Source of the DNA: Candidatus Latescibacterota bacterium
GTDB taxonomy: Bacteria > Latescibacterota > UBA2968 > UBA8231
Direction of reading: 5' to 3'
Length of the DNA stretch: 64,000 nt
NCBI GenBank assembly: GCA_964291625.2
Contig: OZ220089.1
Location: 800,001-864,000 of the forward strand
Positions 60,631-64,000 of the stretch are shown one piece after another (within the stretch, counting starts at the first letter, position 1; the number at the start of each line of letters is the position of its first letter). Both the position numbers and the translations under genes were made by a program. Below the pieces are notes generated by a model. That model was not told the origin of the DNA, did not search any database, and saw only the letters and a list, made by a program, of their open reading frames with translations.

Positions 60631-61353
60631 CTATCTCCCTCCGCGGGCGGTGCTGTCCGCGGCGCCGGCGGTCGAGTCCGCCATGGCCCCGTACTGCTCC
60701 AGCAGCAGCAGTCTCTCCTGCTCCTGCCGGCGTTTCCACCTCGCCTGCTCCAGGCGCCCCAGCTCCAGCCGCTGGGAGGCGGTGAGCAGCTCCTCGAAGC
60801 CGGTCCGGTAGCGCTCCTGGAACACCTCGTAGTCGTCAAGGGACGGTGGGCGCCCTGCCTTCTTGAGGGCGGCCACCTCCTCGCGCAGCTCCGTCAGCAG
60901 CTGCAGCCACTGCCGCCGCTGCTCCGGCGACAGGTAGAGGACGTCCGCCAGCCCCATGGGCTCCACGTGCTGTCCGGGATCGAGCCGCCGCTCGCGCTGG
61001 TAGCGGCGGGCGCGGTCGATGAGGGCCAGCTGGTCCTTGGTGAGCACCCGGTCCCGCCCCGCCCGGTAGGCGTCGATGGCCTGGCGGTAGCGCACCCGCC
61101 CCCCCCGGGGCGAGATGCGGCCCTCCTCGATCTGGAGGCGCAGCAGGTCGAGCTCCTCCTGCAGGCGCCGTCTCGGATCCCTCAGAGCCTGCCGCTGGGC
61201 GTCGCCGAGGTCGAGGGCCAGCATCAGGCGGCGGTGGAAGTCCTCCCGGAGGCTGTCGCCGGGGGCCGGAGAGGGCGGCTGTCCCGAGGCGGGACCGGCG
61301 GCGAGGAGGGAGAGCATGAGCAGGCCGGCGAGGGGCCCCGTGGGTGAGCGCAT
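60631..61353 (-). CDS. Secreted helical protein with Spy/CpxP-like LTxxQ motifs
   Basis: Signal peptide, LGDAQ/LTKDQ/LSPEQ/LTASQ repeats; start ATG 61353. Confidence 0.65.
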   Translation of the reverse strand: MRSPTGPLAGLLMLSLLAAGPASGQPPSPAPGDSLREDFHRRLMLALDLGDAQRQALRDPRRRLQEELDLLRLQIEEGRISPRGGRVRYRQAIDAYRAGRDRVLTKDQLALIDRARRYQRERRLDPGQHVEPMGLADVLYLSPEQRRQWLQLLTELREEVAALKKAGRPPSLDDYEVFQERYRTGFEELLTASQRLELGRLEQARWKRRQEQERLLLLEQYGAMADSTAGAADSTARGGR

Positions 61354-62221
61354 CAAACCTCGATCGCCTGGTCCAGGGCCCGCATGTACCCGACGGTCCA
61401 CGCCAGCCCCGCCGCCGAGTCGCCGGCGATGGACGGGTAGTGCTCGGGGTAGACCTGGCCCTTGTAGCCGATCTGCTTGAGGGCCCGGAAGCAGCCCGCC
61501 ATGTCGACCTCGCCGGTGCCGAAGGCGACCTCCAGGTAGCCGAGCCGCTCGAAGCGCTCGCGCAGCTCCGCCGGCACCGGTCCGGCCGGGCGGGTCTCCA
61601 CGTCGCGGGCGTGGAACATGAAGATGCGGTCCCCGTAGTCGAGGATGTTGGCCACCAGGTCGTCGCCGGCCATCTGCGACTTGCCCTGGCAGAAGGTGAC
61701 GCCGCTGTTGGCGCTGGGGGCCTCGTCGAAAAGCCGTGTCATCGACTCGTAGTTCCACAACAGGCGGTCGGGAACGTGATAGTGATGGGTGGAGATCTTC
61801 ACTCCCGCGGCCTCGGCGCGCTCGGCCAGGCCGCGGTAGTACTCGACCAGCCCCTGCCACAGGGCGGCGCGCTCGCCATCGTCGGAGAGGGGGTCGACGT
61901 GAGGTAGAAGTGCACATAGGGCACGCCCGCGGTCCCCATCGACTCCAGCAGCCGGCCGATGGACTCCAGCTCGCGCCCGCGAGTCCCGGCGTCGGCGAAG
62001 GCCTGCTGGGGCACCCGGGGCGGCGTCAGGGCCGCCAGGGTCACGCCCTCCGCGGCGTACTCTCCGGCCAGGCGGGCCAGGTCTGCCGCGGCCGGCGAGC
62101 CCTCGCCGCCGCACGCGTCGGAGACTCTCAGCACGATGTGGCGCACCGCCGTGTCGCGGCAGAAGGCCCGGTTGCGCTCGTGGTCCCCTCCGAAGGGGGC
62201 GAAAACACCTATGTCCAGCAT
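61353..62221 (-). CDS. Mannonate dehydratase-like / xylose-isomerase-like TIM barrel protein; apparent frameshift at ~61900
   Basis: AEAAGVKI..H, GVTFCQG, IFMFHARDV, GEVDM...LKQIGYKG..YPEH; N-terminus MLDIGVF from ATG 62221 in another frame. Confidence 0.75.
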
Positions 62222-62291
62222 GTGGTCCCTCTCTCTCCCGGGGCGGCATCGAAGGATAGTCACGGCGGAGGGGCGCCGCTGAAGGCCGGCC

Positions 62292-62325
62292 AAAAAAAAA
62301 CCGGCGCGCCGCTGCGACGCGCCGG
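62292..62325 (-). terminator. Rho-independent terminator
   Basis: Stem CCGGCGCG (62301-62308) / CGCGCCGG (62318-62325) followed by U9 on the minus strand. Confidence 0.85.
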
Positions 62326-62401
62326 GATACCACTTGGGCGCCGGCGAACCGCCGGCGCCGCGCCAGGTGGGCGACCACCTGGACCTACAGAAACCGTCAG
62401 G

Positions 62402-62440
62402 TCAGGTGGTCGCACCTCCTGCGGGTATACAACTGCTCAC
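62402..62440 (-). CDS. Putative 12-aa peptide MSSCIPAGGATT
   Basis: GTG AGC AGT TGT ATA CCC GCA GGA GGT GCG ACC ACC TGA preceded by GAAAGGAGGTGGTCC. Confidence 0.4.
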   Translation of the reverse strand: MSSCIPAGGATT

Positions 62441-62647
62441 GGACCACCTCCTTTCGTATCGGCTGCGAGAGCCCTGTACACCGGCACCGGATTTGCCGGG
62501 GTGCCGCCGCAAGAGTGGGCCCGCGCGCTCATCCCTGGCCCTGCAGCGTTCGCCCGAAGGGCGGGATCAGGGGCCAGTTGGCATTCTGCCCGGGGCCGGC
62601 GTCCTTCGCCGGCCCTGCGTGCGCGGTGTTTGTGGCCGCGCCTCGCT

Positions 62648-62677
62648 AATCTACCTCGCCGCCCGAAACGAAGTCAA
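62648..62677 (-). promoter_or_regulatory. Candidate sigma70 promoter
   Basis: TTGACT-18 nt-TAGATT on the minus strand, conspicuous in a high-GC background. Confidence 0.6.
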
Positions 62678-62696
62678 GAAGTTGTACACTTGAATC

Positions 62697-64000
62697 ATGA
62701 ATCAGAGCGCCCACACCGAGGTCGCCATCGTCGGCGGCGGTCTCTGGGGCCTGGCGGCGGCCCACTTCCTGCGCCGGCTGGCTCCGGAGAGCGAGGTCTC
62801 GGTCTTCGAGGCGGCCCCGCGGCCGGGCGGCGCCGTGCGCACCCTTCGCCGCGACGGGTTCCTCTTCGACGCCGGCCCCTCCAGCCTCCTCGACAACTCC
62901 CCGGATCTGCGCCGGCTGCTGGCCGACAGCGGCCTGGCCGGACACGTGATCGAGGCGCGGGAGGCCGCCGCCCGGAACCGCTTCATCCTCCGCGCCGGCG
63001 GCCTGCGGCGGGTCCCGGCGAGCCCCCCGGCGCTGCTGCGGTCGGACCTGCTGTCGGCCGCGGCCAAGCTGCGCGTGGCCCGCGAGCCCCTGGTGCGGCG
63101 GGCACCGGCCGACGCCGAGGAGAGCCTGGAGGAGTTCGTCCGGCGCCGCCTCGGCCGGGAGTTCGTCGACTACGGCGCCGATCCCTTCGTGGCCGGCACC
63201 TTCGCGGGATCTCCCTCGGAGCTGTGCGTGCGCTCCGCCTTCCCGGGCCTGTGGCGTCTGGAGCAGGAGCACGGCAGCCTGATCCGCGGCGCCGCCGGCC
63301 GGTCCCGGAGGCGCGGAGAGCCCGCCGGCGCCGGACCCGGCGGCGGCATCGCCAGCTTCAGCGGCGGCATGCAGACCCTGGTGGAGGGGCTGGCCGCGCC
63401 CCTCGGAGAGCGGCTGCGCACCCGCGCCCGGCTGACCTCCGTGAGCCGCGGGCCCGGCGGCTTCCGCCTCGCCTTCGAGGGGCCCGGGGCCCCCGCCCGG
63501 GTCACCGCCCGCGCCGTCCTGCTGACCCTGCCGGCCCACGCCTACCGGGAGCTGCGCCTCGACACGGACGTGCCCGAGGGCCTGGCCGGGATCCCCTATC
63601 CCCCGGTGACGGCGGTGTTCTTCGGGTACACGCGGCATCCCCTGGACCCGCCGCCGGAGGGCCTCGGCTTCCTGGTGCCGCGCGTCGAGGGGCGCCGCAT
63701 CCTGGGCACGTTCTGGAACTCCTCGGCCTTCGTGGGACGGGCGCCGGAGGGCGGCGCCGCCTTCACCACCTTCGTCGGCGGCCGCCGCCAGCCGCAGATC
63801 GCCGCCTGGGACGACGGCCGCCTCGCCGAGACCGTCCGCGGCGAGCTGCGCGAGCTGATGGGGGTGGAGCCGGCGCCGGACGTGGTCCTCATCCACCGGT
63901 GGAAGCGGGCGATCCCCCAGTACGTCGTCGGCCACCGCGCCCTCATGGCCGGGATCGACCGCCTGGAGGCCGGCTGCCCGGGCCTGTTCGTGGGCGGCAA
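62697..64000 (+). CDS. hemG: Protoporphyrinogen/coproporphyrinogen oxidase (HemG/HemY-type FAD enzyme), 3' truncated by window end
   Basis: Own translation: MNQSAHTEVAIVGGGLWGLAAA...FEA..RPGG..T...DGFLFDAGP...GFLVP...ILG..WNS...RWKRAIPQYVVGH. Confidence 0.9.
   Translation, partial: MNQSAHTEVAIVGGGLWGLAAAHFLRRLAPESEVSVFEAAPRPGGAVRTLRRDGFLFDAGPSSLLDNSPDLRRLLADSGLAGHVIEAREAAARNRFILRAGGLRRVPASPPALLRSDLLSAAAKLRVAREPLVRRAPADAEESLEEFVRRRLGREFVDYGADPFVAGTFAGSPSELCVRSAFPGLWRLEQEHGSLIRGAAGRSRRRGEPAGAGPGGGIASFSGGMQTLVEGLAAPLGERLRTRARLTSVSRGPGGFRLAFEGPGAPARVTARAVLLTLPAHAYRELRLDTDVPEGLAGIPYPPVTAVFFGYTRHPLDPPPEGLGFLVPRVEGRRILGTFWNSSAFVGRAPEGGAAFTTFVGGRRQPQIAAWDDGRLAETVRGELRELMGVEPAPDVVLIHRWKRAIPQYVVGHRALMAGIDRLEAGCPGLFVGG

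Follow-up and report, generated by a model that had tools for sequence, protein, structure and literature searches.

A conserved small RNA gene in Candidatus Latescibacterota with an extended Shine-Dalgarno sequence and a frame-conserved micro open reading frame, most likely a remote relative of CC2171 and Ms_IGR-5

CC2171 is a small RNA (sRNA) of Caulobacter and other Alphaproteobacteria, Ms_IGR-5 is an sRNA of Actinobacteria, and both are orphans. CC2171 was reportedly first described by Landt and co-workers in 2008, and Ms_IGR-5 is said to go back to a paper by Li and co-workers of 2013. Here we describe an RNA gene from a Candidatus Latescibacterota bacterium that is most likely a remote relative of both, sharing their 5' signature and their layout. 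The gene lies in a stretch of 64,000 nucleotides (nt) of contig OZ220089.1 (assembly GCA_964291625.2, positions 800,001 to 864,000 of the forward strand), referred to below as the window; positions are counted from its first letter, and all features of the RNA, which we call the window RNA, are on the minus strand. An earlier note made from the letters alone had proposed an unannotated, stand-alone structured transcription unit at this place, a proposal that our analysis supports. The window RNA is an independently transcribed sRNA of ~350 nt in its host genus, with a core of ~165 nt, and it represents a strongly conserved, previously unnamed RNA family. We consider it highly probable that this is a conserved autonomous RNA gene with a selected extended Shine-Dalgarno (SD) sequence and a frame-conserved micro open reading frame (micro-ORF).

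Expression of CC2171 in Methylorubrum was confirmed by Northern blot (Figure 2A of that report), and the authors state that they identified no condition affecting it (10.1101/2022.01.24.477521). In the literature searched, one relevant paper dealt with CC2171 and none with an sRNA of Latescibacteria; a search for the motif returned mentions of 16S primers only. The signature considered here, a near-perfect complement of the 16S rRNA tail combined with a tail copy inside the RNA and a short ORF whose frame is conserved, was not mentioned in that literature. Like the window RNA, the CC2171 consensus opens (GAAAGGAGGUGAUCCAGUG) with an SD sequence directed at the 16S tail and then GUG, and its complementarity to 16S rRNA extends over 17 nt. 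The two RNAs are also alike in their 3'-end terminator and their core of ~160 nt. The 5' motif of RF01867, the Rfam family of CC2171, is GAAAGGAGGUGAUCCA followed by GUG, and the window RNA carries it as GAAAGGAGGUGGUCC-GUG with one A-to-G difference. They differ in the ORF, which has ~22-25 codons in three metagenome loci scoring above the RF01867 cut-off (all starting MSH) and 9-13 codons in the window family, and in the internal mimic of the 16S tail, which reads GA(C/U)CACCU in the window family and CUGGAUC in CC2171. In addition, the helix that closes the CC2171 model by joining ORF codons ~3-5 to the pre-terminator segment has no clear overall support across the window family, and the 190-nt 5' domain of the window RNA has no counterpart in CC2171. 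The Ms_IGR-5 consensus (RF02471) starts with ACACAaGGAAGGAgGugGuCc and has an internal GAGGUG before a long hairpin. In its metagenome member L171 (53.5 bits), a 15-codon ORF contains GAGGUGAU 7 nt before UAG, the same layout of internal SD and then stop as in the window RNA; Ms_IGR-5 nevertheless belongs to a different phylum, and its hairpin sequences are not alignable by eye with those of the window RNA.

The window RNA itself scored 15.5 bits against RF01867 (E 0.62; gathering score 75) and 15 bits against RF02471 (E 0.44; gathering score 45), and by the families' own cut-offs it is a member of neither. Three of its relatives, however, matched RF01867 end to end (1-159 of 159) with 37.4, 32.8 and 31.3 bits (E 1.9e-5 to 1.4e-3), and a copy from family f2 of the phylum (L118; families are labelled f1, f2 and so on) matched RF02471 with 38.3 bits (E 2.6e-6). 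The novelty that the earlier note had made dependent on Rfam was thus upheld in that no family reached its gathering score, but qualified by these significant, full-length matches of relatives below threshold.

A scan of metagenomes for the CC2171 motif gave at least 120 stretches, and 80 loci were listed. Among the loci listed, 74 have a 12-31-codon ORF at an NTG, 2 are cut by contig ends and 4 have long ORFs. Rfam models applied to 20 of the 80 identified three members of RF01867 (81.6-88.8 bits) and one of RF02471 (53.5 bits), and no sRNA family in the rest. In 35 of the 76 distinct loci listed, the SD region has a perfectly complementary stretch of 7 nt or more further downstream (UCACCUC in 17, CUGGAUC in 14), and the longest such complement averages 5.97 nt over the 76, versus 4.71 nt in shuffled sequences. 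L148, L165, L175, L176 and ~17 more of the loci listed form a tight group with the same extended SD and a 14-codon ORF, MSYTKRCHLAGIAR and variants, that contains UCACCUC; the two loci of this group that were scanned adjoin a divergent tRNA gene and matched no Rfam sRNA family. Another metagenome group has an 18-codon ORF, MSR(V/K)ILE...

The element that ties these RNAs together is the extended SD sequence, called segment A (Table 1). For the site AAAGGAGGTGGTCC (62454-62441), the earlier note had predicted pairing with a typical bacterial 16S tail over up to 14 positions with one G-U; tested against the end of the host genome's own 16S gene (...GGCTGGATCACCTCCTTTCTAAGG, in a longer reading GGATCACCTCCTTTCTAAGG), the complementarity was confirmed and extends over one position more (15), with a computed duplex energy of -27.4 kcal/mol. 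Only 6 occurrences of AAAGGAGGTG exist in the whole 5.9-Mb genome, among them the window RNA and the antisense of the 16S gene end, and AAGGAGGT stands at 0.1% of candidate starts. This genome does use SD sequences, a 4-mer SD being present at 34% of candidate starts versus 16% in a control window, with a peak at -11. Segment A is invariant in the alignments, and GAAAGGAGG is a near-invariant core that occurs in nearly all copies across four families, including f2, f3 and f4, as well as in several paralogues. The 16S tail reads GGATCACCTCCTTTCTA in all five genomes checked (families f1, f2 and f4). Because the downstream anti-SD-like segments B and D cannot pair with GAAAGG, the invariance of this stretch is best explained by pairing to the terminal CCUUUC of 16S rRNA.

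Complementarity to the very 3' end of 16S rRNA, over 15 nt here and 17 nt in the CC2171 consensus, goes far beyond the needs of initiation. It is conceivable that the RNA is a decoy for the 16S tail or the 30S subunit: by holding the 3' end of 16S rRNA, it would either titrate 30S subunits that are free or immature or provide a template on which new ones are tested, with the micro-ORF allowing run-off. In line with this, no part of the RNA is better conserved across families and phyla than the SD motif, and the gene is near-universal, mostly single-copy and in this respect like a housekeeping RNA. Nevertheless, we think a decoy unlikely: an abundance sufficient for titration is unsupported, no link was seen between the window RNA and ribosome-assembly genes, long SD sequences occur also on ordinary, strongly expressed genes (for example at C1:2607300 in the host genome), and the copies of family f4 retain just the 9-nt GAAAGGAGG and nothing beyond it.

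The GTG-initiated micro-ORF, its internal SD, two 3' hairpins and a U9 terminator all lie where the earlier note placed them, downstream of the SD site. In 77 of 78 distinct 165-nt cores, an NTG located 6-11 nt past GGAGG opens a frame of 9-13 codons, and the stop of this frame falls 5-14 nt downstream of the internal GGAGG-like motif. Shuffled spacers yielded such a frame in 16% of trials, a comparison that is not a probability because the core sequences are related. The frame has 12 codons in 54 cores, 11 in 10, 10 in 3, and 9 and 13 in 5 each; since several independent length classes differ by whole codons, every insertion or deletion is in frame. GTG, TTG and ATG serve as starts and TGA, TAA and TAG as stops, all at the same site. 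What is conserved is the frame and the position of the stop, and the peptide is variable. The results support selection on both the extended SD and the short ORF.

It is possible that the 12-residue peptide is itself the product and that the RNA structure tunes its yield. The preserved frame, start and stop would then be expected, as would the maximal SD, and the N-terminus is mostly Met-Ser-Ser, with Ser preserved across switches between the AGT and TCA codon families. Dual-function RNAs are known, and a trans-acting leader peptide of comparable size, peTrpL of 14 residues, is on record (10.1101/606483; PMC7298713). The peptides themselves make a micropeptide mRNA improbable, as they diverge widely between genera and families (MSSCIPAGGATT, MSSNCTAGRLIT, MESTGRSIT, MKHTTIRRWTA, MSEMTSGGGCR) and vary in length, and their C-terminal half is set by nucleotide motifs: a one-base shift of GGAGG in L012-L014 alters the residues from AGGA to LRRS. 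Moreover, the host genome seldom uses 6 of the 11 sense codons that follow the start (each <10% of its synonymous family, AUA 1.5%), a rarity exaggerated by a codon table made from ORFs pre-filtered for high GC content at third codon positions. No conserved partner or modification genes were found near the copies of the window RNA, and the peptides contain neither a regulatory codon run nor a repeated codon past Ser-Ser.

The distribution of the gene was followed with increasingly sensitive searches. Among further genomes, blastn detected the region in 14 of 24 belonging to the same family and in none of 16 from sister families; the reach of plain blastn is limited, and covariance models were therefore needed. 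A scan for the exact pattern, with one genome per species, gave 15 records, all metagenome-assembled genomes, of which 9 are titled Ca. Latescibacterota, 5 Gemmatimonadetes/Gemmatimonadaceae and 1 'bacterium'; the names Ca. Latescibacterota and Gemmatimonadetes are both in use for the lineage in public records. When the 3' half was modelled (covariance model R1), matches were obtained in 69 of 76 family genomes; all 12 high-quality genomes were matched, as were 17 of 18 genera, with rarely more than one match per genome. A second covariance model (R2), built from 70 matches and run on 151 sampled genomes of the phylum, matched 57 of 63 genomes in f1, 16 of 19 in f4, 2 of 2 in f3 and 14 of 30 in f2, where the matches were weak (23-29 bits) and 12 of them were 163-164 nt long. 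In ten other sampled families, R2 gave a weak match in 1 of 5 genomes of f8 and none in 31 genomes of the remaining nine. Sequencing runs that contain the lineage are mostly sponge, coral and marine metagenomes, in shares that say nothing firm on habitat.

Second copies were present in five genomes (L124, L125, L126, L131 and L132, in G017, G043, G054, G021 and G013, respectively). These paralogues consist of GAAAGGAG(G), a ~10-codon ORF, a hairpin over the stop and a terminator, and each is closely preceded by a gene encoding a product with the ending ...IRKLCRRRGI..., which looks like the C-terminus of a putative sigma-70-family factor. The host genome has a second site outside the window, GGAAAGGAGGTGAT at G000:C1:3486262 (plus strand), with a 9-codon GTG ORF containing CUCACCUCUCC and then a terminator-like hairpin; it was missed by R1 and R2 and has no resemblance to the paralogues of other genomes.

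The genes around the RNA vary. In the window, they are a divergent HemY-like oxidase gene and a downstream TIM-barrel/UxuA-like gene; in other genera, they include a permease, an amidohydrolase, a Zn-dependent dehydrogenase (Zn-ADH) and GH95. Because the neighbors differ, and are convergent in several lineages (L018, L022, L026/L046, L050 and L054), the window RNA is very probably not a leader and has no conserved cis target. These facts bear directly on the possibility of a cis-acting, ribosome-dependent attenuator of the downstream TIM-barrel/UxuA-like gene. The anatomy would suit an attenuator: an SD leads a short ORF that runs at its end into a hairpin arm, the pairings can alternate, and a terminator is present. 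A co-directional gene follows within ~40-100 nt in genera g14 and g16 and in the host genus. However, the downstream genes are unrelated between genera, the peptides lack the regulatory codons just mentioned, the conserved terminator is a strong one of 11 bp plus U9, and by inspection no segment complementary to its 5' arm was seen. We regard attenuation as very unlikely, the least likely of the rivals considered. The TIM-barrel/UxuA-like gene (61353-62222, minus strand) is split between two frames, with the break near 61889-61901; residues 1-99 of an intact relative (L024) align with frame -2 and its residues 96-277 with frame -1, the cause being either a frameshift that makes the gene a pseudogene or a misassembly close to a stretch of C's.

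The window RNA has its own transcription signals. The promoter TTGACT-N18-TAGATT at 62677-62648, as located in the earlier note, was confirmed as the sole sigma-70-like site within 61800-63200, where shuffled sequences lead one to expect 0.0, and we infer that transcription starts near 62641. Among close relatives, 15 of 16 distinct sequences retain a match to TTGAC-N19-22-TAnAWT. One terminator-like site was seen in the scanned region, with 0.4 expected. In L064, L065 and L127-L130 (families f3 and f4), GTGCATCC replaces TTGAC ~13 nt upstream of TATAAT-like boxes. It recurs past the terminator in L129 and may be a lineage-specific -35 element; in the host genome this 8-mer occurs 141 times and never with a TATAAT-like -10 box at 10-16 nt.

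Known RNA classes did not account for the locus. At gathering thresholds, the whole 64-kb window gave 0 Rfam matches, and a scan of 62150-62800 by E-value gave weak matches only, the best being STnc390 on the opposite strand (24.9 bits versus a cut-off of 50). ARAGORN found neither a tRNA nor a transfer-messenger RNA (tmRNA) in the window. The earlier note had argued against tmRNA, RNase P RNA and signal recognition particle (SRP) RNA, and rightly so: the window RNA matched none of these models, and the genome has its own tmRNA (C1:991921-992287), RNase P RNA (299.8 bits) and SRP RNA (75.6 bits) elsewhere. Hammerhead, T-box, cobalamin and CsrB-like readings, suggested by a resemblance of motifs, were rejected, as there were no such Rfam matches even at E up to 10; the GGA of the P1 loop and a CUGAUGAG-like string are not conserved among relatives. 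A 6S RNA is likewise improbable, since the window RNA folds into multiple hairpins with an SD-led ORF, unlike the single long helix with a central bubble of that RNA.

The 361-nt stretch folds at -200.7 kcal/mol (z = -4.82), and 0 of 100 shuffled sequences folded as well. All four upstream stems proposed earlier (62621-62641, 62593-62615, 62535-62577 and 62482-62506) are part of this minimum free energy (MFE) fold. RNAalifold applied to 12 relatives gave 41 consensus pairs, 16 with compensatory changes, and the 5' stems of Table 1 recur except that at 62641-62620. The 5' domain is well structured in the host genus and its closest relatives. In other genera, it is replaced by different sequence, and it is missing in f2, where the SD comes ~10 nt after the promoter. 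Thus, the structured 5' half of ~190 nt described in the earlier note is real, but it is a lineage-specific addition that the f2 copies do not have. The conserved core of ~165 nt consists, in this order, of segment A, the micro-ORF with the internal SD-like segment A', segment B, segment C, segment D, a variable hairpin and the terminator. Segment B reads UUGAUCACCUG in other genera, and the hairpins at 62382-62363 and 62359-62337 are present in the window RNA.

Table 1. Positions of the features of the window RNA (window numbering)
Feature	Position	Strand	Detail
Promoter	62648..62677	-	-35 box TTGACT 62677-62672, 18-nt spacer, -10 box TAGATT 62653-62648
Structured 5' domain	62456..62641	-	MFE fold; ~190 nt, lineage-specific
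Variable 5' hairpin	62641-62620	-	MFE fold; upstream of the alignment of 12 relatives
P1 hairpin	62615-62592	-	MFE fold and RNAalifold consensus
CUGGCCC/GGGCCAG helix	62577-62571 with 62541-62535	-	encloses UUCG hairpin 62563-62551 (CGCCC-UUCG-GGCG)
CGGCAC/GUGCCG helix	62506-62501 with 62487-62482	-	MFE fold and RNAalifold consensus
Extended SD GAAAGGAGGUGGUCC (segment A)	62441..62455	-	complement of the 3'-terminal 15 nt of the host 16S rRNA, one G-U
Micro-ORF MSSCIPAGGATT	62402..62440	-	GTG 62440-62438, 12 codons, TGA 62404-62402
Internal SD-like AGGAGGUG / AGGAGGTG (segment A')	62413..62420	-	8 nt upstream of the stop
Segment B GCGACCACCUG	62403..62413	-	16S-tail mimic, 5' hairpin arm, overlaps codons 10-12 and the stop
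Segment C CAGGUGGUCGC	62371..62381	-	SD-like, 3' arm of the conserved hairpin
Segment D CCACCUGG	62363..62370	-	anti-SD-like, can pair with A, A' or C
Variable hairpin GGCGCCGGC-GGUUC-GCCGGCGCC	62337..62359	-	absent in L006-L009
Intrinsic terminator	62292..62325	-	11-bp stem 62325-62301, then U9 at 62300-62292

Two of these segments, B and D, are conserved, pyrimidine-rich mimics of the 16S tail, and in a stand-alone gene with its own promoter and terminator they could belong to a trans-acting sRNA. Here, the anti-SD-like segments (GACCACCU in B, CCACCUGG in D) would bind the ribosome-binding sites of target mRNAs, and the SD and ORF would mask these seeds or protect the RNA. Pairing of an anti-SD-like sequence with an SD is documented as a means of regulation for UCCCCUG in the 3' untranslated region of icaR (PMC3868564). 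This reading, too, is an unlikely one: segment B covaries with C inside a helix, which is unusual for exposed seeds, and the conserved frame of the ORF would be left unexplained.

Among the three roles that the earlier note had offered, a ribosome-binding RNA fits best; a micropeptide mRNA is weakened by the varying peptide and an attenuated leader is disfavored by the differing downstream genes. Our preferred reading, to which we assign a probability of roughly 45%, is that the window RNA is a translated micro-ORF RNA, related to CC2171 and Ms_IGR-5, whose SD-like and anti-SD-like segments may constitute a ribosome-operated conformational switch. In the resting state, either the long hairpin [A'+B]:[C+D] or B:C together with A:D would keep the RNA closed. 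A 30S subunit whose 16S tail is free would then bind segment A, using the single-stranded GAAAGG as a toehold, and the 16S duplex (-27.4 kcal/mol) would win over A:B (-17.3) and A:D (-10.6). The ribosome would translate the micro-ORF and unzip B:C to reach the stop, where its anti-SD may pair again with the internal SD-like segment A', and the freed segments C and D would refold. The act of translation would matter and the peptide would be incidental; the output might be the stability of the RNA itself, an exposed pairing segment or titration of 30S subunits.

The central helix of this proposal is real. The hairpin formed by B and C over the stop codon has compensatory changes at 2 of 11 pairs in an independent MAFFT alignment of 15 sequences, and the conservation in relatives on which the earlier note had made function depend was found: the SD core is essentially invariant, the micro-ORF is present in nearly all distinct cores, and B:C covaries. 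Because the stop and the last codons sit in the 5' arm of B:C, a translating ribosome must open the helix. Over 66 distinct sequences, the combination of [A:D][B:C], the variable hairpin and the terminator was 98.3% paired (36-48% for slid partners), with compensatory pairs at 6 of 11 positions in B:C, 9 of 9 in the variable hairpin, 8 of 8 in the terminator and 0 of 6 in A:D. Two core folds, S1 and S2, were nearly iso-energetic (-28.0 vs -27.3 kcal/mol).

A number of results weigh against the proposed switch. The alignment of 66 sequences was fitted to the model structure, which favors that structure. The pairings A:B, A:D and C:D are compatible with the alignments but have zero compensatory support, which only B:C has; this is because those segments barely vary, and as a consequence both the resting fold and any masking of the SD are predictions. 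In the MFE fold of the 3' half, which is the long hairpin [A'+B]:[C+D], the SD lies in a loop and is thus exposed. A helix from the central codons of the ORF to the segment ahead of the terminator, equivalent to the closing helix of CC2171, is not supported overall, complementary runs averaging 4.8 nt versus 4.6 nt in controls over 72 sequences, although some members have longer runs (8 nt in L075, 7-8 nt in L057, L060 and L093). The link to RF01867 and RF02471 is sub-threshold, below both curated cut-offs, and the matches of R2 to 30 of the 80 metagenome loci listed (19-29 bits) concern loci pre-selected for a shared 5' motif. The slot of 6S RNA is formally vacant, as RF00013 found nothing genome-wide, in a search whose control was positive in just 5 of 14 known genomes.

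The evidence for expression of the window RNA is weak, and part of it also goes against this reading. In four metatranscriptome runs compared over 61900-63000, contigs from two runs of one study cover 62416-62629 (depth 89.6) and 62423-62629 (depth 24.8). A contig from a third run (X9), covering 62493-62884 at a depth of 7.2, crosses the promoter into the divergent HemY-like gene and represents either DNA carry-over or an antisense or upstream transcript serving as a long 5' untranslated region of that gene. The contigs are assembled and come from one study, so that they cannot show ends, strand or level and may themselves reflect DNA carry-over; the parts that remained uncovered in the four runs, among them the neighboring genes and the 3' portion of the RNA, carry no evidential weight. 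Finally, translation, 30S binding and the switch are all predictions from sequence.

A wider and rather unlikely idea is that the window RNA, CC2171, Ms_IGR-5 and the unnamed metagenome groups form one multi-phylum class of 'ribosome-tail reader' RNAs. In such RNAs, a 13-17-nt complement of the 16S 3' end would let the free tail of a mature 30S subunit open a self-masked RNA; the subunit would translate a throw-away micro-ORF and flip the fold, and the cell might thereby gauge or adjust its pool of idle or new 30S subunits. An input of this kind was not described for any sRNA in the literature searched, and if free 30S tails are indeed read out, bacterial post-transcriptional control would gain a new type of input. 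If the RNAs are only micropeptide mRNAs, two 'non-coding' Rfam families need to be re-labelled. Two long-standing orphan Rfam sRNAs are tied to one shared signature, and an orphan RNA found throughout a class of an uncultured lineage receives a concrete, testable reading. The hypothesis can be tested in Caulobacter and Mycobacterium smegmatis, which are tractable and for which ribosome-profiling data exist.

Several described systems combine some of these features. In Sinorhizobium meliloti, an attenuator-derived sRNA, rnTrpL, and its 14-residue leader peptide, peTrpL, are both reportedly trans-active (10.1101/606483, PMC7968998, PMC7298713). As described there, rnTrpL resembles the window RNA in being small and terminated, with an SD and an ORF of ~12-14 codons that overlaps alternative hairpins, and translation of its ORF decides the fate of the RNA. 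In contrast, rnTrpL lies upstream of trpE(G) and its ORF has regulatory Trp codons, whereas the window RNA has neither a conserved downstream operon nor a regulatory codon run. In Flavobacteriales, an extended SD on rpsU reportedly reads ribosomes with a free 16S tail and provides autoregulation (PMC9976891, PMC13000453, PMC7797042). Both cases present an exceptional extended SD, in two lineages of the same superphylum, carried in Flavobacteriales by a ribosomal protein gene in genomes that otherwise ignore SDs, but in the window RNA by a micro-ORF in an SD-using genome. Autoregulation of rpsU in the manner of Flavobacterium was rejected for the host, in which the ATG of rpsU has an ordinary SD, GAGGAG, at a distance of 12 nt.

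Separate steps of the proposed mechanism also have parallels. The icaR mRNA of Staphylococcus aureus has an anti-SD-like UCCCCUG in its 3' untranslated region that pairs with the SD region and blocks initiation (PMC3868564), and in Bacillus subtilis ribosomes initiating at the strong SD of hbs reportedly shield the RNA from a 5' exonuclease (PMC5737220). Both icaR and hbs are ordinary protein-coding mRNAs, unlike the window RNA. STAB-SD sequences are not known to have an associated start codon, whereas in the window RNA both start and frame are conserved. Set beside attenuators of the trp, his and leu type, the window RNA has the SD-led short ORF overlapping the first arm of alternative hairpins and then the terminator, and has no conserved operon downstream and no regulatory codon run. 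Set beside dual-function sRNAs, it is likewise an independent unit with its own promoter and terminator in a variable gene context.

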